This document shows positions 1-38,273 of a stretch of DNA of 64,000 nt, piece after piece. Below the pieces are notes generated by a model, which did not search any database, was not told the origin of the DNA, and worked only from the letters and a program-made list of their open reading frames with translations. This stretch comes from a virus (lineage: Duplodnaviria; Heunggongvirae; Uroviricota; Caudoviricetes): IMG/VR virus record IMGVR_UViG_3300026549_000060, positions 1 through 64,000 of that record, one strand, 5' to 3'. The position numbers and the translations under genes were made by a program. Every line of letters begins with the position of its first letter. Position 1 is the stretch's first letter.

Positions 1-1926
1 TCCAATTACCCCAAAGAACATCTCCGCCATTGGTAAATCTAACAATAGGATTCAGCTCATCATCTTTAAATTGGTCTCTATAACCACCCTGTAAGAGATA
101 TCTATACTGCTGAATACTTGTAGACACTGCGCCTCTACGTAAACCAGCAAATGCCCAGAATATATCATAATCTCTGGCTGTTCTGACCATTAAATCAGTA
201 ACATGATATATAGGAGTCATCCAAATATTCTTACCAGTATAGGCATCGTAGATCTTAGTATAAGGCTCATATAATGCAGCTCTATAATTACTCCAGTTAT
301 GATCAGTTAATCTCTTAGTAATAGCGTCCTTAGCATTTTTATTACCACTTTCAGTATAGATACCATTATCAAGAATACCAAAGCAGGTATCTCTCTTATT
401 GCACAATTCTATAATAGCATCTTTAACTGCAGTTGGATAACCTGCATCAAACACTACGCTGATATCAAAGTCCTCAGTATCAGTAATGAATCCATTTGAT
501 AAAGCTTCCTCAGAACTTACATCTACTTCAGGATTAGTAAGCACACCTGTGTAAGCCTTAATCATAGGACCCGTCATTTTATTCCAGTCTAAAGCACCTG
601 ATTTAGTATAGATAGCACCATCAGAACCACCAGATAAATATTCAATATCAGCCATAGCTAATTCATCATAGCTATTAGAAACTACTGTAATATTACCATC
701 AGCATCCTCTTCTTCTGTATCTTCACTAATCATTATATTATCATTAACTTTGCATCTAAGATACTCAGAATATCTATCAAGAACATCTTCAATAAATAAA
801 GAAGCACCAGAAGAATCTGTGGCATTTCTATCAAAAGAAACAATAAATGATTCAACTAATGAAGGATAAGCTGAATCTTTACTCTTAGTATAGATATCAA
901 GAACAAAAGCGCCATCATAAGACTTTCTAGCCTTAGTAATCTTATAACCAATATTATTATAGTATTCTCCTCTACCATAAGGATAAAGAACCATATCAAC
1001 AGTCCCATTACTAAGTGGATAGTCCATTTCGGCAACTGAATGGAACTCACTTAACTCTGAATCAACAAAGCTATAATTATTAGTAGTTTCTGTAGTTTCA
1101 ACAATAGTTATAGCTTTAGCTTCAGAATCATCAATAGAAGTTTCAGGATCAGTTGAATCATATTCAATTACATCAAAATTAGCTGTAGATGAATATGCCT
1201 GAGAAAGATCTTCAAAAACTGAATTACTAACCTGAATAACCTCAGTATTAACAAAATTACCAGCAAAGGATTTACCAGTAAATTTAAATCCAACCATTTC
1301 AACACTGGATGAAGAAGGATTCATTGAAGTTACAACAGTTTCTCCGCCAGCTCTATCAGAACCAGTTGATTTTTCAGATTCAGATCTAGCTCCATATAAC
1401 TTAACTGTAGGATCAATAGTATAATTGATACTAACAGCTTCAGGAATAATTAATGAGCTACCTTCATTTTCAGAAATAATTTCATCTAAACTCTTTGAAG
1501 CTAAATCTTCCTGAGAAACTAACACACCCTTAGTAGTATCAACTTCCTTAATTTCAGTTTTATTACCAGCTTCATCAACTTCATATCTGGTAACAACTGT
1601 AGTAGGATTAGCTGAAAGCTTTAAAGCCTTAAATGCATAAGTTGCATCATCAGGAAGAACTCTCATAACATAAAGATTACTAAGAGTCTTTAAATACTGA
1701 AGGGCAACATATCCGCCTTGGCCAAATCTGGAGCTATCAGGGCTACCATAAGTTCTGATAAAATCAGATGCTGAAGTTGTTAATCTGGGGGTGTTATCAG
1801 GACCCTTTTCACTATTAATGCAAATAAAACCAATAAGATTACTTGATAATGCCTCTACATACTGAGAATTATCAACTATCTTAACTCTAACACCAGGCCA
1901 GCCACTACTTATACTAGAAGCCATGG
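1..1926 (-). CDS. Phage contractile tail sheath protein, partial. The C-terminus runs off the window start; the start codon is at 1926.
   Basis: Manual translation of the minus strand from the ATG at 1924-1926 gives MASSISSGWPGVRVKIVDNSQ..., at least 640 aa with no stop. The N-terminal PGV(Y/R)V..D motif and Ser/Thr/Asp-rich composition are typical of sheath proteins. An RBS (aaggagatgg) precedes the ATG. Confidence 0.55.
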
Positions 1927-1970
1927 TCTATACCATCTCCTTGTAAATAAATGTTTGCTGCTAAATATAA

Positions 1971-2016
1971 AAAAGTCTCTTCCACAACATGTAAAATATT
2001 AATGGAAGAGACTTTT
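1971..2016 (-). terminator. Rho-independent terminator for the upstream minus-strand gene: a 14-bp perfect inverted repeat with an 18-nt loop.
   Basis: aaaagtctcttcca...tggaagagactttt, followed on the minus strand by a T-rich tract. Confidence 0.5.
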
Positions 2017-2021
2017 TAAAC

Positions 2022-3050
2022 TTAAGTTAATAAAGCAATACCCCTTGCAGCTAACATTTGTAAATCTTCTACAGATTTCAACTTTTTATATTCATAAACA
2101 CCACATCCAAGAGTTACTGCTAATACTTCAGAGGTATTATATAATTCTGAAAAAGGAGGACATGGGTATTTATGTTTAACTCCTTCATCACTATCATCAA
2201 CCATTATACCCATATAAGGCGCAGTATGATAATATGCACTAGTTAAACTTCTTAAATTTAAACAATTAAAATCTTGAATATCCATAAAATGAGAATCATG
2301 TCTCAATACTAAAGTAGTATTATTTCTAAAGCATCTGTTAAAATCTTGTAAGAATTTGATATAGAATTTATCATAATATTCTAGCTCAAATTGGGATAAT
2401 CCTGATTCTGATAGTTTCATTTTAATTTGATCTTTCAATTGATTAAACATAAAGTCTAATTTCTTTTCTTGATCTTCACTAAAATGTAAACCTTTATTAG
2501 CTACTGCTTCATAGTATTGAAGTATGATTTGAAGATATGGCCTATAAAAAAGTTCTGCAAATTGTTTAGCTGTAACGGTATTAACTCTATTAGAAAAAAT
2601 ATTTTTATCTTTTGGATCTTTAAAAGTATAAAATAACATATAAAAGAATTGTTTATACCAATTTAAAGTAATTGGATTTTTAGCTAAGATACCTCTATTA
2701 TGAATATTATAAGAATGAATAGCATAATATAATAAGCCAGATAATATATCTGCATATTCTTTCTTAAATATAGATTTAAAGTTATCTTTTTCAGTATTAA
2801 AGATATTCATCTTTTTAACTATAGGAGTAGTTATGTCTATAAAACTATAATTAATATATATTTTATTATTCTCTTTATCATAAACTACCGGTAAGTTTCT
2901 TTTCATAAAGTTAAAATGCTTAACTTGAATACCTTTATCTAATTGAGCATTTATAGACTCACACAATACTGGTACTAAAAAATCAAATTCTCCAAACTTA
3001 GTAACTATATCTTCTATATGCTTATACGCATCAAATAAAAACTTGATCAT
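2022..3050 (-). CDS. hypothetical protein (342 aa)
   Basis: Long ORF in the AT-rich coding context. No recognisable motifs. Confidence 0.5.
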   Translation of the reverse strand: MIKFLFDAYKHIEDIVTKFGEFDFLVPVLCESINAQLDKGIQVKHFNFMKRNLPVVYDKENNKIYINYSFIDITTPIVKKMNIFNTEKDNFKSIFKKEYADILSGLLYYAIHSYNIHNRGILAKNPITLNWYKQFFYMLFYTFKDPKDKNIFSNRVNTVTAKQFAELFYRPYLQIILQYYEAVANKGLHFSEDQEKKLDFMFNQLKDQIKMKLSESGLSQFELEYYDKFYIKFLQDFNRCFRNNTTLVLRHDSHFMDIQDFNCLNLRSLTSAYYHTAPYMGIMVDDSDEGVKHKYPCPPFSELYNTSEVLAVTLGCGVYEYKKLKSVEDLQMLAARGIALLT

Positions 3051-3327
3051 TAGTATATAATCTCCTCTCTATAATGTATAATATAGGGAGACTACTTTCT
3101 GTGTTAGTATACCCTAAGATTTGTTCAAAATTTTTTAAGAATTAGTTTTGTACCAAATACTAAAAATAATCCAGTCACTAGAATTAACTGTATTTATCTA
3201 ATAGGTTAAAATTTGTATGTATATAATACTATTCGGGAACAGATGGGTCTCAATTCACTATAAAGTGAATCTCCCACAGGAATTCCCAGGCCAAGTCCAT
3301 GGGGCCAGAAACATATCACTGGAGGTG

Positions 3328-3789
3328 ATGACCATGGAAGTGGAACGCAAGTTCCTCATTGAGGGAGCAGTGCCCTTCTCCCTCAATGTGATTAAGGAGT
3401 ACGAAATCCTACAGGGTTACGTGCTCCTAGAGGGCAAAAACGAAGCGCGGGTTCGCCGCCGCACTTCGAATGATGGTGAGGAATTCTTCCTTACCATCAA
3501 GGCTGGCACCGGCCTGTGTCGAGCGGAAGTCGAGGTGCCAATCACCTCCGCGCAATTTAAGGAGCTAATTAGTGTGGCTGGCGACCGCACCATCAGCAAA
3601 ACTCGCTACCTGACTGCCGAAGGGTATGAGGTAGACCTGTACCATGGTCGCCTCAACCACCTCAAAGTGGTCGAGGTAGAATTCGGCTCTGAGGCCGAGG
3701 CACAGAAGTTCGTGCCTCCGGCCTGGTTCGGGGCCGAGGTGACTGAGGACAAGCGGTATAAAAACCGAGCCCTGGCAATCCAGGGCTAA
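3328..3789 (+). CDS. CYTH-domain protein (triphosphate tunnel metalloenzyme, CyaB/ThTPase-like), in a GC-rich islet
   Basis: The N-terminal EVERKFLIEG matches the CYTH ExExK signature. An RBS (ggaggtg) sits directly upstream of the ATG at 3328. Local GC is about 55%, versus about 30% in the surrounding genome. Confidence 0.65.
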   Translation: MTMEVERKFLIEGAVPFSLNVIKEYEILQGYVLLEGKNEARVRRRTSNDGEEFFLTIKAGTGLCRAEVEVPITSAQFKELISVAGDRTISKTRYLTAEGYEVDLYHGRLNHLKVVEVEFGSEAEAQKFVPPAWFGAEVTEDKRYKNRALAIQG

Positions 3790-3871
3790 CTCAGTCTAGT
3801 TTAATTCCCCTTCCTATGCTCGGGGAGGGGGATTGTTTTTACCCCCACTTAGGGGGAGAAAGGAGGCCATC

Positions 3872-4450
3872 ATGAAGATGGTCAAAATCGCCCTCACAGG
3901 TGGTCCTTGTGGGGGAAAGAGCAGTGCCATGGAGTACCTTCGGGATAGACTCCATGGCTGGACCGTAGTTGTCGCACCAGAGGCAGCCACGGAGGTTATC
4001 CTGGAAGGGAACTCTCCTGGAACGTTCTCATTCCAGAAGAAGGTGTTCCAGCGCCAGCTTCTGCTTGAGCACCGTGCAATAGAGGAGGCCGCACAGTATG
4101 ACCGTTCGGTTGTGCTGTGCGACCGCTCCCTCCTGGACCAGATGGCGTATGTTACGTCAGATGAGTTCCGGGAACTCCTTACGATGAGCAACCTTTCGAT
4201 GGATGAGGTTGTTCGTCGTTATAACGGTTTCATCCATCTAGTATCCGCAGCGGTTGGCACTAACTGTTACACTACCGCTAACAACCCTGCTAGGAAGGGT
4301 AATGCGGAAAATGCCATTCGACTGGAACACAAGACTCGAATGGCTTACCACGATGTGCCCGGTGTCATCGTGGTGGATAATTCCACCGGGTTTGAGGGCA
4401 AGCTGGCGCGAGTCCTCAAAGCTGTACAGGAGATTATCTCCCGCTCCTAG
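3872..4450 (+). CDS. P-loop nucleotide kinase/ATPase (AAA_28 / NadR-RNK-like), in the same GC-rich islet
   Basis: Walker A motif IALTGGPCGGKSS. An RBS (aaaggagg) precedes the MKMVK start. GC-rich. Confidence 0.55.
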   Translation: MKMVKIALTGGPCGGKSSAMEYLRDRLHGWTVVVAPEAATEVILEGNSPGTFSFQKKVFQRQLLLEHRAIEEAAQYDRSVVLCDRSLLDQMAYVTSDEFRELLTMSNLSMDEVVRRYNGFIHLVSAAVGTNCYTTANNPARKGNAENAIRLEHKTRMAYHDVPGVIVVDNSTGFEGKLARVLKAVQEIISRS

Positions 4451-4463
4451 TACAGCAAAGAAA

Positions 4464-4502
4464 AAAGAGTAACCCTCCATTATGGTTGCTCTTTTTCTTT
4501 TT
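4464..4502 (+). terminator. Rho-independent terminator ending the GC-rich islet
   Basis: Hairpin gagtaacc/ggttgctc followed by tttttcttttt. Confidence 0.55.
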
Positions 4503-4507
4503 GGTTC

Positions 4508-4535
4508 TTGACAGCATAAATCCCTATGCTATAAT
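4508..4535 (+). promoter_or_regulatory. Consensus sigma70-type promoter, TTGACA-N16-TATAAT
   Basis: ttgaca at 4508-4513 and tataat at 4530-4535. It precedes the small plus-strand genes. Confidence 0.55.
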
Positions 4536-4557
4536 CATTTCATACCTTAGGGAGGTG

Positions 4558-4764
4558 ATGCAAATGTTTTATGAACTTTGGTGTAATGATGGTGATTATT
4601 ATCATCTTACTGAAAAGGCTAAACGTGAGCTTGATCAGTATTTAAAAGAAAATAATGTTGCATATAAAAATATCGGTATTGATGTATCTCCAGTTAAACT
4701 TTTCGATCACATTCCAAACATTATCGATTTCTATATTGAGGAATATAAAAATGCGAGAAGATGA
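4558..4764 (+). CDS. hypothetical small protein (68 aa)
   Basis: RBS gggaggtg followed by an ATG at 4558. Confidence 0.4.
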   Translation: MQMFYELWCNDGDYYHLTEKAKRELDQYLKENNVAYKNIGIDVSPVKLFDHIPNIIDFYIEEYKNARR

Positions 4765-4948
4765 CTACATAGAAAAAGGAGTTCAGGTTAAATTTTTATG
4801 GTACGATGGTACTAAATATATACCAATGAAAGATCTTGCATGGATGCATTTCAGCAAGGATCTAAATTGTAATGTATACCATACCATGGCATTCGGATGG
4901 CTTACCGAAAATGAAGTTATTTCTTGGAAAGAAATAGAAACCTCTTGA
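4750..4948 (+). CDS. hypothetical small protein
   Basis: ORF overlapping the stop of the previous gene. Starts MREDDY. Confidence 0.35.
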
Positions 4949-26107: not shown

Positions 26108-26791
26108 TTAATTATTGTCTTCAGAAGGAGCTTCTTCAGTTCCATTGTCTTCATCAATTTCAATATCAGCAGCTTCAAGATCATTCCAATCCTGAGCATC
26201 AAGATACTGAGAAATATCACTGTCGGGGTCAGTTGGATCATAACCCATATTCACCGCATAAACAATTTCATTATTGATAGTCATCTTCTCTGTAGCTACT
26301 GAGAAACCTTCATTAAGTCTGCTAAGAATTCCAGTTCTAAAATCATTCATCATCATACTAATGTCTGAGAAGATTTCTCCAATAAATCTAGCCCTAACTC
26401 TATAATACTTAGCAAGAAGTTTTGCTTTAGCTACTTCTTTACCAAACTCTTCATTCCAAGTATCATTAGTTTCTGGATTACACTTTGCTACTGCAAAAAA
26501 CTTATCTGGAAACTCTTCAAGGAGTTTCTTATCGATAAGGTCAGCAACAAAATTACAATCACCATTCCTATGAACTGCTGTGCAATTATAAACAAAATTA
26601 ACAAAATCACGATTGCAATTTGTCATAAATGCACACACTACACCTTTGTCCTTATTAATACGATACTCAATCATAGTTTCTGCTCCTTCTTTGTCTGTTA
26701 TTTTTGCCCTTATTAGGGTCTGCTCGTTTTGACGTATTCTTGTGATAACCCTTATCCTTTTTCTTTTTGGTGTAATCCCAAGAATCCTCAT
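26108..26791 (-). CDS. hypothetical protein with an acidic C-terminal tail
   Basis: ORF adjacent to ssb. Acidic DIEIDEDNGTEEAPSEDNN tail. Confidence 0.4.
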   Translation of the reverse strand: MRILGITPKRKRIRVITRIRQNEQTLIRAKITDKEGAETMIEYRINKDKGVVCAFMTNCNRDFVNFVYNCTAVHRNGDCNFVADLIDKKLLEEFPDKFFAVAKCNPETNDTWNEEFGKEVAKAKLLAKYYRVRARFIGEIFSDISMMMNDFRTGILSRLNEGFSVATEKMTINNEIVYAVNMGYDPTDPDSDISQYLDAQDWNDLEAADIEIDEDNGTEEAPSEDNN

Positions 26792-26864: not shown

Positions 26865-27860
26865 CTACCAACCTATATCATTAGGATCATCAACTTTAAT
26901 CCCAAAGATATCACAAAAATTAGAAATACGATCATCAACTGCAAATTCTTGCATTTTATTATAATTAATTCTAAACTTAGTTAAATCTAATGTACCATTA
27001 GTAGGAATAGTAATACAATCTAACTTACCTTCTTTACCCATTGTACCAGATCGAACTAAATCTGTCAAGCGTCTTTGTGTATCTGAATCAAATTGACCTA
27101 TATCAATTTCTTCCAAGTCAAATCTATAGCCTCTATCCATTACTCTAAAGGTACTTCCATAAATTGCATTATATACCAACATAGATTTAACTGATCTTGG
27201 CAGTCTATCTTGGGCATAGTTTTCTTTATTCCAAGAACTTGGAATAGCACAATAAACTGTACCTGTTTTTAACTGCTCAACATATCTACCTCTATAATCA
27301 TCAATCTTAGTGGTAAGCTCTTCTTTACTGATTCCTTTCTTAAGGATATGCTCAATAAAATCATTTAACATATCTCTGCTAAATTGAGGATAATCAGATC
27401 TTACAACTTCTATACCACTAATACTGATTTTATCCAAAGGCTTTCCTTCTTTGGAAACTAACCAAATAGCATACTTCTTTTTGATTTCCAGAAACAAAGC
27501 TCTTCTAATAACAAGTTCCTGTTTAAAATTAAAGTTAAACTTTTTAGCCGAAGATTCTGTAGGAGATGTATTATGCATATTAAGAAGTTCATGAATCATT
27601 ACATTATTAATATACTGTGCTACAGATTCATTCAATTCAATAACTTTATCTATCTTTTCCTTGTCAGAAATTTCATCATAATCTTTTCCATAAATTGCTT
27701 TCAATGCATCGCCATATTTAGTAAAAATTGAATCTGTATTATGAACTAATATGTCATTTGCAAAAAAACAATGATCATCATCTGGCATTTCAATATCATA
27801 TACATCAATAGGTTCTTCTGGAGTAATCACTTCTATTGATTTAACACTCTCTATCTTCAT
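26865..27860 (-). CDS. Family-B DNA polymerase C-terminal fragment, beginning with a C-terminal split-intein half (IntC about 41 aa; 27738..27860)
   Basis: MKIESVKSIEVITPEEPIDVYDIEMPDDDHCFFANDILVHN is an intein block F/G ending in HN. It is followed by TDSIFTKYGD..., the C-extein that continues pol motif C (YGD|TDS). Confidence 0.8.
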   Translation of the reverse strand: MKIESVKSIEVITPEEPIDVYDIEMPDDDHCFFANDILVHNTDSIFTKYGDALKAIYGKDYDEISDKEKIDKVIELNESVAQYINNVMIHELLNMHNTSPTESSAKKFNFNFKQELVIRRALFLEIKKKYAIWLVSKEGKPLDKISISGIEVVRSDYPQFSRDMLNDFIEHILKKGISKEELTTKIDDYRGRYVEQLKTGTVYCAIPSSWNKENYAQDRLPRSVKSMLVYNAIYGSTFRVMDRGYRFDLEEIDIGQFDSDTQRRLTDLVRSGTMGKEGKLDCITIPTNGTLDLTKFRINYNKMQEFAVDDRISNFCDIFGIKVDDPNDIGW

Positions 27861-27914
27861 TTTCCTTCACCACCCATATAATGATTCTATCAGACTCGGC
27901 ATACTTTGTCAATA

Positions 27915-28540
27915 ATTACACAATATTCTTATTTGTAGGTCCTGTATAGTATGGGCAATACAATACTAATCAGGTATCAATTATACGATATTCTTATTTG
28001 TAAGTCCACATGGTAAAACAATTCCACTACTCCAAAAGCTCATAGTTATACGATACCCTTATTTATAAGTAACGTATAGTGAGTATACCAGAACTGAAAG
28101 AGCACGTCAAGTTATACGATACTCTTTATTTGTAAGTGTCGTATAGTGCTAAAATACTCATGTTTAAAATGTCTGTTATACGATACCCTTATTTGTAAGT
28201 ACCGTATAGTAACATCATTAAATTTCATTTTTACATCACTGTTATACGATACCCTTATTTGTAAGTACCGTATAGTATGTGATGGACCATGCAGGAAGAA
28301 GATAGCGTTATACGATACCCTTATTTGTAAGTACCGTATAGTGATGATGAGGTAATAGCAGTAATAGTTAGAGTTATACGATACCCTTATTTGTAAGTAC
28401 CGTATAGTCACCCAAATCAGCATACTCTTTAATATCATGTTATACGATACCCTTATTTGTAAGTACCGTATAGTTCTTTTTTATCGTCTGTTGTATCTTC
28501 TTTTGTTATACGATACCCTTATTTGTAAGTACCGTATAGT
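27915..28540 (-). CRISPR. CRISPR array with eight conserved 36-bp repeats plus two degenerate terminal repeats
   Basis: Repeat gttatacgatacccttatttgtaagtaccgtatagt at 28045, 28111, 28175, 28241, 28307, 28373, 28439 and 28505. Spacers are 27-30 bp. Degenerate copies lie at 27915-27950 and 27980-28015. The degenerate repeats are distal to the nuclease gene, so I infer transcription on the minus strand from 28541-28750. Confidence 0.85.
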
Positions 28541-28543
28541 ATC

Positions 28544-28640
28544 CTATACGCAAACTCTTACAAATACTGAGTTTATTCAATATTCAGTTGTAAAAAACAG
28601 CATTTTCCATACGTAAAAACAAATAAAAAGTATCGTATCC
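28544..28640 (-). ncRNA. putative tracrRNA-like / leader region carrying two anti-repeat segments
   Basis: ctatacg-caaactc-ttacaaata (28544-28566) is the reverse complement of the repeat's 3' half (tatttgtaag..cgtatag). gtatcgtat (28630-28638) is the reverse complement of the repeat's 5' part (atacgatac). The region lies between the nuclease gene and the array. Confidence 0.35.
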
Positions 28641-28751
28641 GAATAAATCCGGAGGCAGTTAATTTTCATTAACTTTATTTAAATTCACATCGCTGATTCT
28701 GATGATCTTATTTAAATGGGTTTGCCAAACTTACCCAAATACATCCCCTGT

Positions 28752-30236
28752 TTATTTAGGGAATTTAGAATACTTTAGACCTTCAATTACGTCTTTAACT
28801 CTCATCCTAACTGGATGAAATGGATGGTATCCAACCCAACTAAAATCTGGAATTGCTTTTCTCATAATACCCATAGCGCCATTTACATCAGCATTCACCA
28901 ACTTTCCAACCCCAGAAGAAAACAATCCTCTGTGAATTCTTTTACCAAAGTTAGCCTCATCTCTAGTTTCAGGGTCTTCTTTAGTAGCCAAGGGAGCATT
29001 TCTAAGATGATCTGTTTTACTAGTATAAGACTCTTCAACAATCTCGAAGCTTATGCCCCTCATTTTACACTTATATTCGAGTTTGTCAAGTAGTTTTTTA
29101 AAAGGAAAGTTAACAATAATTTGATTATTTTTATGCCCAGTATTGATCTTCTGCTTCATATCTTTATTCCAACCGCAAATAACTCTACAAATATTATAAT
29201 GGAGGCAATATCTAACAATATACTTAGTATATGCATCAACGATATAATTTATACGATTAATATGATTCTTTGTCATTGCTTCAATTCTCTTAGTAGTATA
29301 CTGCTTAGGTCTTTTCTTCCCATTTTCATCAGTAATAACTTCAATCTTATGTTTAAGTTTATCTACCATTAAATGATAAAATCTAATTTTAGATTTCAAA
29401 GCATTACCATCAAGGATAACTGGATTAAGTTTATCATCACTAGTAATTATAGTACAAAAATTTCTAATACCCAAATCAATACTAAGATATCGTTTATTAT
29501 CAAGTTTAGGAACCGATTCATTATACGTATAAATTATTTCAATCTTAAAATATCCTTTTTTAGGAATTATCCTAACTTGGTCAATTCTTTTTCCTTTTAC
29601 ATACTCCGAATTATGTGGCAATTTTTGAAGTGGGATATAAATGCTTTTATTATATCCATCCGTTCCCCTCGGCTTAGGAAACACAAGACTTCTAGTTTTT
29701 GAGTTAATTTTAATAGAAGTACCAGAAAAGTATAATGGGCACAGATCTCCTTTTTTATAAAAACCGGGCTTTCTTGGCATTCCTTTATATTTTTCCGGGT
29801 GCCTACTCCAATCCCCAAGGGATCTTCCATATGATTTTAAATTTTTAGATAGTAATGTTCTAATTACCTCTGTAGTTGCATCTCTACCTACAAGATTTTT
29901 AAGTAGTTCCCAATTACTTTTACCCTCAAGATTTTTAGTATAATACTCACCGTTCTCATCTTGTTCACTGGCATATCTCCTCAAACTCATTACTTTAAAA
30001 AAATCATCGACAGGTTTTTCAAAACCAACGTATTCGTCTGGAAACCAAGGAAAAGACTTACCAGTTTCTTTTTTATATTGTTCTCTAACCGGGTCATAAG
30101 CTTCTTTAAACTCATAAGCATAGTACAGTGTCTGATTATACAAATTCTTAGCAACAGTACATGCTTCTACAAGCCAATCATATACTTCTTCATTTCCAGG
30201 TCTTCTATAAAAGTTAAAACTAGCAGTAAGTTGCAT
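28752..30236 (-). CDS. TnpB/Cas12-like RuvC nuclease (494 aa), the CRISPR-associated effector candidate
   Basis: RuvC-I LSIDLGIRNFCTI, RuvC-II ISFEIVEESYTSKT and RuvC-III NADVNGAMGIMRKA, with a TnpB-like WED region (KGKRIDQVRIIPKKGYFKIEI). No cysteines between RuvC-II and RuvC-III. RBS gaggggg. Confidence 0.8.
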   Translation of the reverse strand: MQLTASFNFYRRPGNEEVYDWLVEACTVAKNLYNQTLYYAYEFKEAYDPVREQYKKETGKSFPWFPDEYVGFEKPVDDFFKVMSLRRYASEQDENGEYYTKNLEGKSNWELLKNLVGRDATTEVIRTLLSKNLKSYGRSLGDWSRHPEKYKGMPRKPGFYKKGDLCPLYFSGTSIKINSKTRSLVFPKPRGTDGYNKSIYIPLQKLPHNSEYVKGKRIDQVRIIPKKGYFKIEIIYTYNESVPKLDNKRYLSIDLGIRNFCTIITSDDKLNPVILDGNALKSKIRFYHLMVDKLKHKIEVITDENGKKRPKQYTTKRIEAMTKNHINRINYIVDAYTKYIVRYCLHYNICRVICGWNKDMKQKINTGHKNNQIIVNFPFKKLLDKLEYKCKMRGISFEIVEESYTSKTDHLRNAPLATKEDPETRDEANFGKRIHRGLFSSGVGKLVNADVNGAMGIMRKAIPDFSWVGYHPFHPVRMRVKDVIEGLKYSKFPK

Positions 30237-30298: not shown

Positions 30299-31408
30299 TC
30301 AAGAGGCTTTATTAAAAACCTTATATCCATTACGAGCTGTCTTATCTTCACATAAGATAATAAATTTAGGATAGCTATTACTATTAAAATAAGTTGCTCT
30401 CTTACAGTGCTTACACGATAAGCACTGAATCATCACTGGTGCCTTTTTCCTTATATGGTAGTCCTGAAATTGTGGGCAAAAATTAACGTTTGATGTAACA
30501 ATCGACCTTGGAAATTCGTTTCTAAAAAATGTCCACTGTCTTGTTAGATCTAATCCATTAAAATTTTTATTTTCTAATATATTCTTAAACTTCTTTTGTT
30601 CCATATATTCTATAATGTCAGTCTCTTTTAAAGCATCTAATCCCTCATCAGTTAGATTGTCATAAAACCTATCTACATACCATTTAACTCCGTTTGTAAC
30701 TCGAAAAGCGTATTCATAAGATCTATCACAAACTAGGTCGCTCTCACCACTTCTATGAATCCAATTGCATGGAATACTGCCGCTTAAGTATGCCTGTTTT
30801 AATTCGTCATATGTAGATTCTCTATTTACTTTAGATAAGTCATACTCTACAACATAAAAATTATTAGTATCTATAGATTTAATTAAATCTAGTTTTACAT
30901 CATCTACTCCATGGGTTACTGTTACTTCAAGATACACGCTACATGGAGAGCTATTAAATCCAAACATTTCCTCATAACTAACATCATAGCATGTCAAATC
31001 GGGTCTAATATATTTCCCATTAGCACAATTTAAATTTTTTTCAAGATAACCCTTATTAAATTTATAAAAATTTGATTCTTTAATCCTAATATATGATGTG
31101 CCCATACTAAGCGTATTAGGATTTATAATATTACCATTCCAATCAATATCTAATTCAGGCATCCTACATAGGCCTGTTTCCATAATAATCTTTTTCATGC
31201 CTAAATGTAAATTAGTCTCTCCATGAACATAAACTGAAGCTGGACATTTACTATTCGGTAAATGTGAAAAATGATGACCAACAATATTACCTTTTTTAGC
31301 TACTAAAGGCTCCCCGCATATAGGGCAGATATAATTATGCAACCCAGACACTACTTCAGAAATATTCTTAATGCTACCGTCTATCAAACAATATTCTAAC
31401 TGAGCCAC
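30299..31408 (-). CDS. CoiA-like protein (competence-protein-CoiA family; nuclease-related)
   Basis: N-terminal YICPICGEPLVAKKGNIVGHHFSH matches the CoiA CPxCx..GxxxxxHFAH motif. Confidence 0.45.
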   Translation of the reverse strand: MAQLEYCLIDGSIKNISEVVSGLHNYICPICGEPLVAKKGNIVGHHFSHLPNSKCPASVYVHGETNLHLGMKKIIMETGLCRMPELDIDWNGNIINPNTLSMGTSYIRIKESNFYKFNKGYLEKNLNCANGKYIRPDLTCYDVSYEEMFGFNSSPCSVYLEVTVTHGVDDVKLDLIKSIDTNNFYVVEYDLSKVNRESTYDELKQAYLSGSIPCNWIHRSGESDLVCDRSYEYAFRVTNGVKWYVDRFYDNLTDEGLDALKETDIIEYMEQKKFKNILENKNFNGLDLTRQWTFFRNEFPRSIVTSNVNFCPQFQDYHIRKKAPVMIQCLSCKHCKRATYFNSNSYPKFIILCEDKTARNGYKVFNKAS

Positions 31409-34781: not shown

Positions 34782-35113
34782 TCAGCTTTCTTTTTCTTAG
34801 GAGGTCTACCTCTTTTTCTCTTAACTGGAGCAGGAGGAGTAACCTCTTCCTTAACTTCTTCAACAACAGGTTTTTCAACAGGTTTTTCAACAGGCTTTTC
34901 AGCAGGTTGTTCTTTGACCTCTTCAGTCTTAGTCTGCTTACTAGCAGCCTCTGCTTCAAAATCCTCTTTTGTTTTAATTGGAAACTTGTAAATATGTCCT
35001 TTATCATTAGTTCCAATCAAAACACTATCATTACTAAGCGGAGCTTCAGCCAAACCCATTCTTCTGCAAATTTCCAAAGCTTCAGCTCTGGTATATTTTT
35101 TCAAATTAGCCAA
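34778..35113 (-). CDS. AT-hook DNA-binding protein with PVEK tandem repeats
   Basis: C-terminal KRKRGRPPKKKK (GRP AT-hook core). PVEKPVEKPVEKP is encoded by a 15-bp triple repeat at about 34864-34905. Confidence 0.45.
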   Translation of the reverse strand: MANLKKYTRAEALEICRRMGLAEAPLSNDSVLIGTNDKGHIYKFPIKTKEDFEAEAASKQTKTEEVKEQPAEKPVEKPVEKPVVEEVKEEVTPPAPVKRKRGRPPKKKKAE

Positions 35114-35693: not shown

Positions 35694-38273
35694 TTATAAG
35701 GTGATTAGTTGGTCTGTTACAACTAATTCTGTTGGTTTAATTATAGTTTTAACATTATTTCTCATTACTACCAAACTATGATCTTCAGTTACAGTGACTG
35801 TTTTTCCAGATTCAGTAGTAATCTTATACAGTTTCTTATTAGTTTTATGCTTCATCAGATACCTTGGGAAATAAAGTCTGTCATCATATCCAAGTACGCA
35901 TTTATTAGGATTCTGAATATAATTTTTTCCGAGATAATGCCACACTTTATTATCCGAAGCACACATATCCCAAAGTTCTTTAATAGTTATATTACCTTTA
36001 CCAGTTCTGATTAAAGAATCTCCAGTAACTGAATCTCCATAAATTACATTTGGTAGAGCTTGTTCTGATTGGTAATCCCAATCAAAAGGAATATCTACAT
36101 GGTCAAATTTATTAGATTTATTTTGAATCATTTGATTAATGCAATTATTAGCAACTACTGCGGCGATTTTAGCAATTTCTCTACCAGTAGAAGTAATACT
36201 TCTGGCAACCTCATAATCATACAATCTGAATCTAATATTGGACTGACCACCATAAAGAGAATTAGTAATGATCTTAACTGTTTTCTGCATAGTATCATAT
36301 CTGTCAACTAGCATTTGGTCTTTACCAATATTATCCTTCATAAGATCTTTATACTCTTTTCTCTTTTTAATGAGCATATCTACAATATCATAAAGAACTG
36401 ACTGCTTATCTTCATGCTTCTTAAAGATAGTGCCAATCTGGGTAATAATATACCCATTCTTAAGCATTCTTTCATGAAAACTTTTAGCAGACAATTTATA
36501 CAATCTCTCAATACCTTGAACTTTCAAATACAAACTTACATCTGTATTGGAATTAACAAATTCTTCTTTATTAAAGATATATTGTCTAGCAGTATCTGTA
36601 TCAACTTTTCCTACATAGGTATCTGCACTAATGTTATATCTTGCCATAATGTATGGATAAAGAGAAGTAAGATCCAAATCACCCAACCAATCATGTACAC
36701 CGCTAATTGGTTCTCTAACATAAGCACCCGCAAACTTTTTCTTCTCAATTCCAGCTTTAACAATTTTGGCTACTTTATCTCTATCCATAAGATACTCATA
36801 AAGAATCCCATCACAAATATGTAGAGTAGTATAAATACTATCCCATGAGATATTAGCCAACTGGACTATACTAAAATTAAGGTCAATATACTTCAACTTT
36901 TCATCCAATTTTCTTACAAGATGAACGTCGTTAATATTGTATGCAATAAACCTTTCAGGTTCTTCCCTAAAGATTTTATCCATGCCATCTTCAGTATCAA
37001 GTTTAGTAATACCCAACTCAATTTTAGAAATAGTTCCAAGCTTATAATTCTCTTTTTTACCAAGAGTTCTTTCCTTATAGCATCTTTGATAATCAAGTGC
37101 TACAGAATAACCAATATGAGGAATACAATAAGTAACTTCCTCTTCATGTTTATTCATAACTGTTTTATATTCAATTTCAAAAGTTTTATTATGAGCCAGT
37201 TTAGGATGTTCAATTCCTAAAAATTCTGCTCTATACTTAATATAAGGTAAATCAAATTCATCACTATTCCACCCAGATACTAGATCTGGATCAAATTCTT
37301 TCAATAAACTGAAGAACTTAAGGAACATATCACTTTCTTTATCAAAGATTTCTACATTGAAAATACACTCATCTTTGTAATCAAGATATTCCTTAATTTG
37401 TTCAGTATTAATTTTAGCTTTGTTTAAATTATAGACCAAAGTATAATATTTGTCAGTATAATTATCATACAAAGTAATCAAGTTAACGGGAATAACTCTA
37501 GCTGACTTCTTAATATCAGCAAAGTCAATAATACCATATCCTTCTTGATACAACTCAATATCAACATAATTTACTCTAAGTTTATAATGACCAAGATTAT
37601 CTTTGTTTTCTTTTTTCCAAAGATAATTCTTATGAATAGCCAAATTAAAATCTACATTATAAATAGCTTTATAAGAAGATTCTGACTGAATTTGTTCAAT
37701 AATGTATTTTCTTTTACCATAATGTACCAGTTCACCTTTTAATCCTGCAATATCATGAACATCTAAATAATCATCTTTACCGGTATACATCATAACCATA
37801 TCATCAGTCTGAGTAATATATCTTTTATCACCAACTCTAATAACATATGCAAATTCCTTATTCACATAGTCTGAATAGAAGTTAAACAGCATAGGCTTAG
37901 AATACCCATCAGTTGGCTTAGAATCTTCTTTCTCTTTAGAGCTATACAATTTATATTTACTCTTTTTATTAATAACTACATCAGTTTCTTTCTTTTTAGG
38001 TTTTTCTTCAATTTTGGGAAACACGGGTTTAACAGGAATATAATTAAACTTATAAATAGTGTTATACTTCTTATGTACTTTAGCAATATCTTCAATAGAA
38101 TACTTATACGCATAAGGATTATTGAAAAGCTGATTCAATACAATAGATGTTTCAAAATCTTCTTCAGCTAAACTTAAAATAGAGGAAATCTTAAGAGACT
38201 TACATTCCTCTGGAAATGGCACATTTCCTTCAGTAGCTAACCATCTTATATATGTAGTTAGTGGTGAAGCCAT
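35694..38273 (-). CDS. Family-B DNA polymerase N-terminal fragment (3'-5' exonuclease and polymerase motifs A, B and the YGD of C), ending in an N-terminal split-intein half (IntN about 112 aa; 35697..36032)
   Basis: Motifs YVDIE, YNINDVHL, GAYVREP, DLTSLYPY (motif A) and KIITNSLYG (motif B), then ...NVIYGD|SVTGDSLIRTGKG (intein block A) ... TVTEDHSLVV (block B TxxH) and a stop. Confidence 0.85.
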   Translation of the reverse strand: MASPLTTYIRWLATEGNVPFPEECKSLKISSILSLAEEDFETSIVLNQLFNNPYAYKYSIEDIAKVHKKYNTIYKFNYIPVKPVFPKIEEKPKKKETDVVINKKSKYKLYSSKEKEDSKPTDGYSKPMLFNFYSDYVNKEFAYVIRVGDKRYITQTDDMVMMYTGKDDYLDVHDIAGLKGELVHYGKRKYIIEQIQSESSYKAIYNVDFNLAIHKNYLWKKENKDNLGHYKLRVNYVDIELYQEGYGIIDFADIKKSARVIPVNLITLYDNYTDKYYTLVYNLNKAKINTEQIKEYLDYKDECIFNVEIFDKESDMFLKFFSLLKEFDPDLVSGWNSDEFDLPYIKYRAEFLGIEHPKLAHNKTFEIEYKTVMNKHEEEVTYCIPHIGYSVALDYQRCYKERTLGKKENYKLGTISKIELGITKLDTEDGMDKIFREEPERFIAYNINDVHLVRKLDEKLKYIDLNFSIVQLANISWDSIYTTLHICDGILYEYLMDRDKVAKIVKAGIEKKKFAGAYVREPISGVHDWLGDLDLTSLYPYIMARYNISADTYVGKVDTDTARQYIFNKEEFVNSNTDVSLYLKVQGIERLYKLSAKSFHERMLKNGYIITQIGTIFKKHEDKQSVLYDIVDMLIKKRKEYKDLMKDNIGKDQMLVDRYDTMQKTVKIITNSLYGGQSNIRFRLYDYEVARSITSTGREIAKIAAVVANNCINQMIQNKSNKFDHVDIPFDWDYQSEQALPNVIYGDSVTGDSLIRTGKGNITIKELWDMCASDNKVWHYLGKNYIQNPNKCVLGYDDRLYFPRYLMKHKTNKKLYKITTESGKTVTVTEDHSLVVMRNNVKTIIKPTELVVTDQLITL

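Follow-up and report, generated by a model that had tools for sequence, protein, structure and literature searches.

The gap between the TnpB-family nuclease gene and the CRISPR array at this locus probably encodes a tracrRNA that would pair with the array repeats and would be transcribed from the minus strand, like the nuclease and the array. It measures 211 nt from the nuclease stop codon to repeat 1, in agreement with the roughly 210 bp given in an earlier note on this DNA, and lies within a window, by which we mean the whole 64,000-nt stretch that was analysed. Read along the minus strand, the locus comprises the 494-aa nuclease, four hairpins (P1-P4), a near full-length anti-repeat (AR-A), a conserved linker, a partial second anti-repeat (AR-B), and an array of 36-nt repeats (Table 1). 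The gap contains repeat-complementary motifs and hairpins with compensatory changes, its anti-repeat co-varies with the repeat, spacers are gained with a polarity, and the nuclease combines a TnpB/Cas12f fold with intact catalytic residues. A structured gap RNA carrying an anti-repeat is predicted computationally between effector and array; in V-U and TranC systems, the array likewise lies downstream of the nuclease with the tracrRNA between them (PMC10691335; bioRxiv 10.64898/2026.03.27.714800).

Table 1. Coordinates of the locus features in the window
Feature	Position	Strand	Description or basis
TnpB-family RNA-guided nuclease, 494 aa	28752..30236	-	Pfam, NCBIfam, AlphaFold/Foldseek
Whole gap	28541..28751	-	Candidate tracrRNA gene (stop-proximal two-thirds) and CRISPR leader (array-proximal third)
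Hairpin P1 (GGGT...ACCC)	28718..28736	-	Arms vary, pairing kept across loci
Hairpin P2	28677..28717	-	Outer stem ATTTAAAT/ATTTAAAT, inner stem CATC/GATG
Hairpin P3 (GTTAAT GAAA ATTAAC)	28658..28673	-	Pairing kept in L003, L004, and L006
Hairpin P4 (CCGGA TTTA TTCGG)	28639..28652	-	Directly 5' of AR-A
AR-A, near full-length anti-repeat	28606..28640	-	RNAduplex, local alignments, cross matrix, trans cofold
Conserved linker motif TTTTTACAAyTGAATAT	28579..28596	-	Between AR-A and AR-B; invariant A2 columns
AR-B, partial second anti-repeat	28544..28567	-	Adjoins repeat 1; unique pattern, cis hairpin
CRISPR array	27915..28540	-	36-nt repeat ACTATACGGTACTTACAAATAAGGGTATCGTATAAC, 30-nt spacers

Nuclease, array, and phage context

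Our profile searches matched the nuclease to the Pfam families Cas12f1-like_TNB (1.3e-9) and OrfB_IS605 and to the NCBIfam model guided_TnpB (2e-32, above the model cut-off). Its RuvC residues D254, E401/E402, and D450 are invariant throughout the clade, and the TNB zinc-finger cysteines are missing. With the AlphaFold model (pLDDT 81.9) as query, the top Foldseek ranks were taken by AsCas12f, followed by ISFba1 and ISDra2 TnpB, with E-values of 1e-16 to 1e-13 for the Cas12f and TnpB matches, while LaTranC (9jfq) appeared at rank 44. The likeness to Cas12f is structural and architectural only; the NCBIfam model CRISPR_Cas12f2, which has a cut-off of 450, scored 37.4 bits, and the best single-sequence PDB match to a Cas12f reached E = 0.034. 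The closest sequence relatives are IS607-type TnpBs (36-40% identity), the nearest of which, P0006, overlaps a serine-recombinase (Resolvase) gene and is therefore of the IS607 type. No TnpA/transposase gene is present at the window locus, which points to a nuclease that descends from a transposon TnpB and has since left its transposon. Given its TnpB-family membership, its Cas12f/TnpB fold, and the invariant RuvC residues, the nuclease is expected to need a scaffold RNA.

The clade is rare, comprising five protein clusters among 5.8 billion, and a second protein search with P0005 as the query returned no additional members. Searches of IMG/VR by peptide patterns, by the conserved scaffold motif, and by a degenerate repeat pattern yielded no close relatives; the full-length matches in a JGI metagenome scan were only TnpBs at 39% identity or less, and no INPHARED phage carried a relative above approximately 37% identity. 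The locus is carried by a rumen phage with contigs of up to at least 288 kb, where it separates the two parts of a split-intein DNA polymerase B gene, with a CoiA_N-domain protein upstream and the C part of PolB downstream, and the synteny around it is conserved.

The array has a period of 66 nt, with six perfect repeats adjoining the gap and four progressively degenerate ones at the far end, and it begins approximately 200-235 nt after the stop codon in every clade locus with enough downstream sequence. The gap-proximal spacers differ between samples: L091 equals L003 plus one additional spacer at the gap end, and five gap-proximal spacers present in the window and in L140 are missing from L141, L142, and L144. 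Because new spacers arise at the gap end, the array-proximal part of the gap appears to double as a leader. No Pfam match to cas1 or cas2 was detected in the 58 ORFs of the window that reach 110 aa, a set that lies above the size of Cas2. Spacers turn over naturally although no adaptation genes sit nearby. No spacer targets were found in the window or the comparison loci at up to five mismatches, nor in IMG/VR with one seed search, and INPHARED gave none of note, the sole match (E = 0.4) belonging to a low-complexity spacer.

Anti-repeats and hairpin scaffold across loci

AR-A is an inverted copy of the repeat of approximately 34 nt (ATACGATACTTTTTATTTGTTTTTA-CGTAT aligned to ATACGATAC-CCTTATTTGTAAGTACCGTAT) and the strongest repeat-pairing site in the gap, with a duplex beyond chance at -28.2 kcal/mol (RNAduplex) against -14.9 +/- 2.6 kcal/mol for shuffled sequences, none of 500 being as good. 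The earlier note had recognized only the 9-mer GTATCGTAT (28630-28638, + strand) as complementary to the repeat here; that motif is present, and rather than being a short segment, it forms the core of the near full-length AR-A. Outside the array and the gap, the 9-mer has one further copy (26658-26666, minus strand), where chance alone would give 0.21 over both strands of the 64 kb. The other motif put forward in that note, CTATACGCAAACTCTTACAAATA at 28544-28566 (+), is equally real, and the pattern CTATACG-N(2-8)-CTTACAAATA has a single + strand match in the window, the seven others being minus-strand array repeats (0.00 expected). The gap, described there as AT-rich, does not stand out in this genome, with 31% GC against 32% for the window. 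The assignment of the motifs to the 3' half and the 5' part of the repeat is valid on the + strand, and the halves swap on the minus strand, from which the array is most likely transcribed; in that orientation, the predicted partner of the 9-mer segment is the repeat part next to the guide, and that of the array-proximal segment is the other half. The claimed pairing with both repeat halves was borne out by the consensus fold, which gives two-segment pairing of 10 + 8 pairs, and the suggested co-folding with the repeat, run on four variants, paired AR-A in trans with the repeat of the crRNA every time (RNAcofold, ddG -7.5 to -17.1 kcal/mol).

Our comparison across the clade covered eight loci or groups of loci, which between them carry six variants of repeat and anti-repeat (the window with L001/L002/L140-144; L003, L091, L146, and L148; L005; L004; L006; and L145). 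The order of nuclease, four hairpins, anti-repeat, linker, and array is common to all of them, though the repeats differ. Duplexes of each gap with its own repeat reached -27.8 kcal/mol in L003, -32.2 kcal/mol in L004, and -28.4 kcal/mol in L006, with no shuffle of 500 as good in any of the three, and -27.8 kcal/mol in L005 (2/500), the shuffle means over loci being -14.9 to -16.3 kcal/mol (sd 2.4-2.8); in L145 the own-repeat duplex was modest, at -20.8 kcal/mol versus -19.0 kcal/mol with the L006 repeat. The best pairing site of each locus lies 0-5 nt past P4 and aligns with the reverse complement of its own repeat. When every gap was paired with every repeat, the own repeat was best in all rows and columns, with -12 to -27 kcal/mol for the repeats of other loci; the narrowest margin was 1.5 kcal/mol (L004 gap with the window repeat, -26.7, versus -28.2 for the window's own gap), and margins elsewhere extended to approximately 20 kcal/mol. 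L006 and L145 show one difference in the first 163 gap nucleotides, and their divergence begins at AR-A, together with changes at 6 of 28 repeat positions.

The four hairpins change in sequence from locus to locus while their arms remain complementary. The arms of P1 read TAGGCT/AGCCTA in L003, GGGTA/TACCC in L004, and GGCTAT/ATAGCC in L006; P2, which corresponds to alifold helices 4 and 5 and includes four pairs with compensatory changes, has GTGAATT/AATTCAC in L006; P3 has GTTAAC/GTTAAC in both L003 and L004 and GCTTACAC/GTGTAAGC in L006; and P4 has CCGTA/TACGG in L003, CCATA/TATGG in L004, and CCGGGT/ACCCGG in L006. The last locus, with 52% protein identity and an unrelated primary sequence, nevertheless keeps the same order of P1-P4 and anti-repeat. 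In the alignment of the window subclade (A2), 91.9% of cells were paired versus 36-43% with the partners slid, and 17 pairs were compensatory versus 1-5 when slid, a value reached by none of 500 shuffles, statistics limited by the small number of different gap sequences, approximately six, and by the use of one alignment both to derive the structure and to test it. The linker columns are invariant in A2 across the window, L001, L003, L004, and L005; the linker motif does not match the sigma-70 consensus and could serve the array as a promoter or as part of its leader. An 18-bp, G.U-rich helix that links the P1 region to the P4 region in the window-only minimum free energy (MFE) fold was rejected as part of the consensus, as it is not kept in L003, L004, or L006.

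A covariance model of the scaffold with AR-A (R1), run against 62 sources, recovered only its own subclade, neither L006 nor any of approximately 55 TnpB loci, and homology of the scaffold to the omega-RNAs of the related TnpBs therefore could not be shown. Direct inspection of the 3' regions of the IS607 relatives revealed extremely AT-rich sequence with no obvious similarity to the scaffold. Taken at the level of sequence, the architecture, the covariation, and the tracking of the repeat by the anti-repeat favour the reading of the gap as a tracrRNA or an omega-RNA-derived scaffold.

Proposed mechanism and competing readings

What follows on transcription, on the ends and processing of the RNA, on loading of the nuclease, and on the targeting of DNA is inference. 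The 5' part of the tracrRNA would be the P1-P4 scaffold, covering approximately 113 nt from the stop codon with AR-A directly after P4, and its start could possibly lie within the 3' end of the ORF. AR-A would base-pair with every 36-nt repeat in the pre-crRNA, its 5' part (AUACGAUAC) on the guide-adjacent 3' part of the repeat and its 3' part on the repeat 5' part, giving a long duplex that would likely be processed by host RNase III. Scaffold and repeat duplex would be bound by the TnpB-derived nuclease, and the 30-nt spacer 3' of the repeat would guide DNA cleavage by RuvC, as in Cas12f, TranC, and the unsplit TnpB omega/reRNA. The array-proximal third would act as the CRISPR leader, within which AR-B could fold back onto repeat 1. 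Known TnpB and Cas12f scaffolds measure approximately 100-200 nt and combine a guide-adjacent pseudoknot (R:AR-1) with a stem (R:AR-2) (PMC10097598). Counting against a tracrRNA are the palindromic repeats of the window subclade, for which an inverted copy looks like a direct one as well, a gap that matched no Rfam family at E <= 1, and the finding of no predicted sigma-70-like promoter or intrinsic terminator in the gap, the regional count being at or below chance. Palindromic repeats usually accompany tracrRNA-independent Cas12 enzymes (PMC10097598).

AR-B is the weaker of the two anti-repeats, and the most divergent branch has not kept it. It is predicted to pair in cis with the 5' half of repeat 1 across a GAUA loop, at -17.2 kcal/mol in the window versus -7.1 +/- 2.3 kcal/mol for shuffled leader (0/500 as good). 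The locus might be imagined as half-split between omega-RNA and tracrRNA, with two guide-making modes, a reading that we hold to be doubtful. In cis, a read-through single guide would combine the guide-proximal anti-repeat with the AR-B/GAUA/repeat 1 hairpin to rebuild an omega-RNA topology for the newest spacer; in trans, AR-A would serve as a conventional tracrRNA for all downstream repeats. If this were true, AR-B would favour, or else mask, the newest spacer.

It is unlikely that the gap belongs to a single reRNA-like cis guide, produced by read-through from the nuclease gene and serving mainly spacer 1, in which the 5' part of AR-A would sit on repeat 1 next to the guide and a terminal stem would be built from AR-B, GAUA, and the 5' half of repeat 1. 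This is the topology of TnpB omega-RNA and the two-segment model of the earlier note taken literally. The alifold cis consensus yields exactly its two helices, namely helix 9 between the AR-A 5' part and the repeat 3' part (97.8% paired, 10 pairs, 4 compensatory) and helix 12 between AR-B and the repeat 5' half (92.5%, 8 pairs, 3 compensatory). The AR-B/repeat 1 hairpin exceeds chance in the window and, more weakly, in L003 (4/500) and L004 (8/500), and ISDra2 omega-RNA joins its crRNA-like and tracrRNA-like parts by a natural tetraloop (PMC10097598). However, single-sequence MFE folds of the cis transcript put the full-length repeat 1 on AR-A and leave the AR-B region aside as a side branch, and the AR-B hairpin is absent in L006 (100/500). 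Furthermore, the AR-B region is still GGAAGA in L145 despite the altered repeat, the AR-B cross matrix did not give the own repeat as best for L004, and spacers 2 onward would go unserved, yet they are maintained and turned over.

We consider it improbable that the gap is a leader or promoter only and that a tracrRNA-independent nuclease reads the palindromic repeat hairpin, as do Cas12a, j, m, and lambda; the inverted copies would then survive from a repeat-spacer-repeat unit that had been flipped, with recombination holding them close to the repeat sequence. The repeats of the window subclade do fold on themselves at -12.1 to -15.1 kcal/mol, the AR-A to AR-B distance of 58-63 nt is near the array period and resembles an inverted mini-array of two units, spacers are added at the gap-proximal end, and no predicted promoter or terminator delimits a separate RNA. 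Nonetheless, this reading leaves unexplained the four compensatory hairpins upstream of AR-A, including those of L006 with its unrelated sequence, and in L006 the repeat is barely palindromic (-6.5 kcal/mol self-fold) but the anti-repeat is strong (-28.4 kcal/mol). The related proteins TnpB and Cas12f all require long scaffold RNAs, and the predicted duplex beats both self-folds by 7.5-17 kcal/mol.

A functional transcript on the + strand, in which the inverted copies would be the degenerate repeats of either a divergent mini-array or a regulatory crRNA-like RNA, is most improbable. In its favour, both copies are oriented like the nuclease-strand repeat, the + strand folds better than shuffles (z = -2.4), and for L006 the opposite strand gives a slightly stronger duplex. 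Against it, the mini-array 'spacers' would be the conserved linker and scaffold, the G.U pairs in P1-P4, such as that of the window P4, form on the minus strand only, three of the four variants fold and pair better on the minus strand, and the single direction of nuclease, tracrRNA, and array matches the published architecture. In the window, the minus strand gave -28.2 versus -20.4 kcal/mol for the duplex and -30.3 versus -21.2 kcal/mol for the fold, the folding-energy preference being clear only there.

Relation to known systems

The tracrRNA reading places the locus beside several described systems, and it is consistent with the class of TranC and type V-U systems already in the literature, as an uncharacterised instance. 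TranC (Jin et al., Cell 2025, doi 10.1016/j.cell.2025.09.004) includes the phage-borne CauTranC9 (PMC13565253, PMC13639567, bioRxiv 10.64898/2026.03.27.714800). As these citing papers describe them, TranC systems share with this locus a TnpB-sized RuvC nuclease of IS605/IS607 descent, a short adjoining array with no cas1/cas2/cas4 nearby, a tracrRNA (putative here) between effector and array that is consistent with a split omega/reRNA, repeats of similar length (32-38 bp in TranC, 36 nt here), and, for some members, residence in Caudoviricetes. This likeness is set by described features rather than by assignment to a numbered clade, LaTranC being a distant fold match. Unlike TranC so described, the locus combines one full-length anti-repeat with a partial second one abutting repeat 1, strongly palindromic repeats, and a position within a split-intein DNA polymerase B gene of a phage of at least 288 kb. 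Candidate type V-U* subtypes run from V-U6 to V-U45 (Altae-Tran et al. 2023, PMC10691335), and at the level of the class, rather than of a particular branch, the locus resembles them in its independent, recent TnpB-to-Cas12 transition, its downstream array with no adaptation genes, and a protein modestly enlarged by REC-region insertions.

Type V-F Cas12f (Un1Cas12f1 7C7L; AsCas12f 8J12, 8DZJ) provides the best fold match (Foldseek E = 1e-16, TM 0.55-0.67) and shares a multi-stem tracrRNA (predicted here), two repeat:anti-repeat contacts (the guide-adjacent R:AR-1 pseudoknot and the distal R:AR-2 stem), and an array downstream of the nuclease, whereas sequence identity is only approximately 15%, the TNB cysteines are lacking here, and the nearest sequence relatives are IS607-type TnpBs. 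TnpB omega/reRNA systems (ISDra2 8H1J, 8EXA; ISFba1 8IAZ) belong to the same protein family and fold, encode their RNA at the 3' end of the nuclease gene and beyond it, and carry the guide at the 3' terminus. In omega-RNA, a tetraloop-closed stem connects the tracr-like part to the crRNA-like part, and the hairpin of AR-B, GAUA, and repeat 1 imitates that stem. In contrast to a TnpB OMEGA element, the locus has neither TnpA nor IS ends, holds a fixed syntenic position in the phage, and bears a multi-spacer array with turnover instead of a single guide; in contrast to TnpB omega-RNA, its scaffold model found nothing beside the related TnpB genes.

For a 494-aa nuclease of a rare clade, the analysis specifies a candidate guide-RNA set that is ready for PAM-depletion and editing assays: the tracrRNA would measure approximately 150 nt, the repeat measures 36 nt, and the spacer 30 nt. 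Whether tracrRNA arises by omega-RNA splitting or by repeat-unit inversion is a question to which the paired anti-repeats and the palindromic repeats of this locus are relevant. Current understanding is not overturned; the locus is a well-resolved case of a recently described class, and it adds one more independent transition from TnpB (IS607) to CRISPR, borne by a very large rumen phage.

The nuclease, its array and its relatives

The 494-aa protein is a TnpB-family RNA-guided nuclease: it passed the cut-off of the NCBIfam guided_TnpB model (2e-32), lay far under that of NCBIfam Cas12f2, and matched both Cas12f1-like_TNB (1.3e-9) and OrfB_IS605 in Pfam. Its RuvC residues (D254, E401/E402, D450) showed no variation across the clade, and its AlphaFold model (pLDDT 81.9) retrieved AsCas12f as the top Foldseek match (E = 1e-16, TM 0.55-0.67), followed by ISFba1 and ISDra2 TnpB, with LaTranC only at rank 44. 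None of the four TNB zinc-finger cysteines was kept (residues ~403-440, YTSKTDHL...GKRIHRGLF), and they were likewise missing from the nearest related TnpB, P0006 (YTSKVDHL...GKRVRRGLF), which we assign to the IS607 type because its gene overlaps a serine-recombinase gene. The loss is therefore older than the CRISPR association, and the main difference between the two proteins is an insertion at residues ~40-100 of the window nuclease. Nuclease, gap and array follow one another in that order on a single strand, with six perfect repeats at the gap side of the array and four of rising degeneracy reaching to its distant end.

Features of the locus and its surroundings in the window
Feature	Position	Strand	Description
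Nuclease ORF	30236..28752	minus	494-aa protein
Gap	28751..28541	minus	211 nt, directly after nuclease ORF
CRISPR array	27915-28540	minus	after gap; 36-nt repeat ACTATACGGTACTTACAAATAAGGGTATCGTATAAC, 30-nt spacers
AR-A, near full-length anti-repeat	28606-28640		gap positions 112-146, from alignment of the gap to the repeat reverse complement
Motif GTATCGTAT	28630-28638	plus	0.21 copies expected in whole window
Array-side motif CTATACGCAAACTCTTACAAATA	28544-28566	plus	AR-B, a second, partial anti-repeat
Sigma-70-like promoter, strong match	27884-27912	minus	TTGACA, 17-nt spacer, TAGAAT, extended TG; 11/12 positions; between last degenerate repeat and start of PolB C-part gene
PolB N part	35694-38273	minus	859 aa, intein-splicing domain at end
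PolB C part	26865-27860	minus	331 aa, intein-splicing domain at start
CoiA_N-domain protein	30299-31408	minus	directly upstream of nuclease
12-nt tandem repeat CAACAGGTTTTT	34864-34912		4.1 copies, 89% matches; overlaps small ORFs on both strands
ORF with weak Cas4/PD-(D/E)XK match	within 38294-63644		E = 2e-5

The nuclease clade is very small, comprising five clusters among 5.8 billion clustered proteins (99, 85, 80, 77 and 52% identical to the window protein), beyond which identity fell to ~36-40% with ordinary TnpBs of ~410 aa. Searches for close relatives in IMG/VR, JGI metagenomes and INPHARED found none, and the clade contigs came from ENA and Logan assemblies (L001-L006 and L140-L148), with one locus (L091) from a rumen MAG. 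In all contigs with enough downstream sequence, the nuclease was followed by a gap of ~200-235 nt and then by an array, the repeats of which vary in sequence among loci.

Repeats, gap elements and upstream genes of related loci
Locus	Repeat	P4 stem	Own-repeat duplex, kcal/mol (shuffles as good)	AR-B hairpin, shuffled leaders as good	Gene directly upstream of nuclease
Window		CCGGA/TTCGG		0/500	CoiA_N-domain protein
L140-L143					CoiA_N-domain protein
L001					HNH_3 protein + two small ORFs (3498-4915)
L002					HNH_3 protein + two small ORFs
L003	CCTATACGATACCCTAAAATACAGGTATCGTAGGAC	CCGTA/TACGG	-27.8 (0/500)	4/500	unknown protein, 247 aa (3396-4139)
L004	CCTATACGATACCTTTAAATAAGAGGTACGTATAGC	CCATA/TATGG	-32.2 (0/500)	8/500	
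L005	CCTATACGATACCCTAAAATACAGGTATCGTAGGAC		-27.8 (2/500)		HNH_3 protein + two small ORFs (1726-3501)
L006	CATTCTTCCGTATACGTAGGGATGATCC	CCGGGT/ACCCGG	-28.4 (0/500)	100/500	
L091	CCTATACGATACCCTAAAATACAGGTATCGTAGGAC				
L145	CATTCTCCCGTGAGCGTGTGGATGATCC				unknown protein, 247 aa
L146, L147					unknown protein, 247 aa

A candidate tracrRNA in the gap

An earlier note on this sequence had proposed that the gap, described there as AT-rich, carries a tracrRNA- or omega-RNA-like scaffold with two anti-repeat segments. The gap is no more AT-rich than its surroundings (31% GC versus 32% for the window), and both motifs were found in place. The bipartite pattern of the array-side motif has its sole plus-strand instance here, with 0 expected by chance. 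The other motif, called as a 9-nt match, is indeed an anti-repeat, the extent of which had been underestimated, as it belongs to the near full-length AR-A. By RNAduplex, AR-A was the best repeat-pairing site of the gap, at -28.2 kcal/mol against -14.9 +/- 2.6 kcal/mol for 500 dinucleotide shuffles, none of which was as good.

Comparative evidence from the other loci supported the scaffold interpretation. Every gap variant contained four hairpins (P1-P4), and its own repeat recurred in inverted form starting 0-5 nt beyond the last of them; the stem sequences varied while pairing was retained, and the P1-P4-anti-repeat order was kept even in L006, the primary sequence of which is unrelated. When the window subclade was scored on its RNAalifold consensus, 91.9% of cells formed standard pairs compared with 36-43% when partners were slid, 17 pairs carried compensatory changes compared with 1-5, and none of 500 column shuffles reached the observed counts, which are supportive rather than decisive since structure and counts derive from the same five sequences. 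Own-repeat duplexes were more stable than chance would predict from shuffled controls, and in a gap-by-repeat cross matrix the own repeat ranked top in all rows and columns. RNAcofold runs of a crRNA (repeat and spacer) against the scaffold joined to AR-A, a check that the note had suggested, placed AR-A on the repeat in trans in 4/4 variants, the duplex exceeding the sum of the separate folds by 7.5-17.1 kcal/mol.

A comparison of two loci with proteins at least 90% identical, L006 (2815-3050) and L145 (2255-2490), revealed a single difference in the first 163 nt of their gaps. Divergence begins at the first base of AR-A and continues through linker and repeats, the latter differing at 6/28 positions, and the differences include one compensatory change from U-A to C-G. 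AR-A therefore moves and evolves with the array and not with the scaffold, and the pattern suggests that an anti-repeat-plus-array module was swapped by recombination.

Taken as sequence evidence, these observations make it likely that the gap encodes a tracrRNA. Such a minus-strand RNA, composed of P1-P4 and AR-A, would pair with every repeat in the array, so that the guide-adjacent part of the repeat meets the 5' part of AR-A and the distal part meets its 3' part, and the nuclease would bind this assembly with the 3' spacer as guide; we infer that the RNA is transcribed, where it ends, its processing by RNase III, its loading and the cleavage step. The proposed pairing mirrors the guide-pseudoknot-stem arrangement (R:AR-1, R:AR-2) common to TnpB omega-RNA and Cas12f tracrRNA:crRNA, and in the ISDra2 omega-RNA a natural tetraloop links both halves (PMC10097598).

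The partial anti-repeat and array polarity

With AR-A masked, the next-best pairing site at every locus was the stretch immediately 5' of repeat 1 (-19.4 to -21.6 kcal/mol). The window is predicted to form a hairpin of -17.2 kcal/mol in which AR-B (UAUUUGUAAG...GUAUAG) pairs across a GAUA loop with repeat 1 (5' half), compared with -7.1 +/- 2.3 kcal/mol for shuffled leaders, and the AR-B stem (helix 12 of the consensus cis fold) contains three compensatory pairs. In the AR-B cross matrix the own repeat was best in part only, and L145 retained GGAAGA at the AR-B position although its repeat had changed. AR-B is therefore real as far as the window subclade is concerned. Confidence in any role for it is lower than that for the tracrRNA: AR-B may be an element of the leader-repeat junction, may cap repeat 1 in cis or, in line with the consensus cis fold, may supply the distal stem in a single guide that resembles an omega-RNA. 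AR-A and AR-B lie 58-63 nt apart, near the array period of 66 nt, and the conserved TTTTTACAAyTGAATAT between them gave no match to the sigma-70 consensus.

The array varied among natural samples, with several of the spacer differences at the gap end. The L091 array equals that of L003 plus one additional gap-end spacer, and five gap-proximal spacers present in the window and L140 were absent from L141, L142 and L144, which have identical nuclease and gap, a comparison that assembler collapse of identical repeats may have affected. L001, with a 99% identical protein, carried four spacers absent from the window. Together with the far-end repeat degeneracy, the gap-end differences place the gap on the leader side, and transcription should therefore proceed from gap to array on the nuclease strand. 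Energies in the window clearly preferred this strand (duplex, -28.2 vs -20.4; fold, -30.3 vs -21.2 kcal/mol); the preference was weak in L003 and L004, and there was none for the L006 duplex. A domain search of the 58 window ORFs with 110 aa or more gave neither Cas1 nor Cas2, and adaptation would therefore rely on genes in the host or in another part of the phage genome.

Phage setting and relation to known systems

The family-B DNA polymerase (PolB) is encoded by two genes ~7.8 kb apart, and the intein-splicing domains at both facing ends probably constitute a trans-splicing split intein. Between the halves lie ThyX, the CoiA_N-domain protein, the nuclease and the array; the PolB C part also directly follows the array in L004, L006, L091 and L145. 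The gene directly upstream of the nuclease varies among otherwise syntenic phages, and ThyX in L005 bears a LAGLIDADG insertion (591 aa); this region has the look of a selfish-endonuclease hot spot. The exact nuclease protein occurred on contigs of up to 288 kb (P0217), the PolB N part was only 26-31% identical to its jumbo and T4-like phage counterparts, and the samples were rumen metagenomes (STEW19, RUG11211); the source is therefore probably an undescribed rumen jumbo phage.

TranC systems, as described in PMC13565253 and PMC13639567 (citing Jin et al. 2025), are CRISPR-associated TnpB descendants that arose repeatedly from IS605 and IS607 TnpBs and use a tracrRNA and a crRNA that originated when an reRNA was split. 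A 2026 preprint (bioRxiv 10.64898/2026.03.27.714800) places the tracrRNA between effector and array and includes one phage-borne member, and 40 V-U branches have an array downstream and no adaptation genes (Altae-Tran et al. 2023, PMC10691335). The window locus displays each defining feature of TranC/V-U open to test here, a likeness drawn at class level from these descriptions; the nuclease falls outside the Cas12f family models and the locus outside the OMEGA transposon definition. Less usual are the pairing of a full-length anti-repeat with a partial tandem copy, the strong palindromy of the repeats in what appears to be a tracrRNA-dependent system, and the position within a jumbo phage, where the locus is flanked by the two parts of a split-intein polymerase gene. 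While introducing no new principle, the locus is an instructive TnpB-to-CRISPR intermediate and provides a rare compact nuclease with a guide-RNA definition that is clean and testable.
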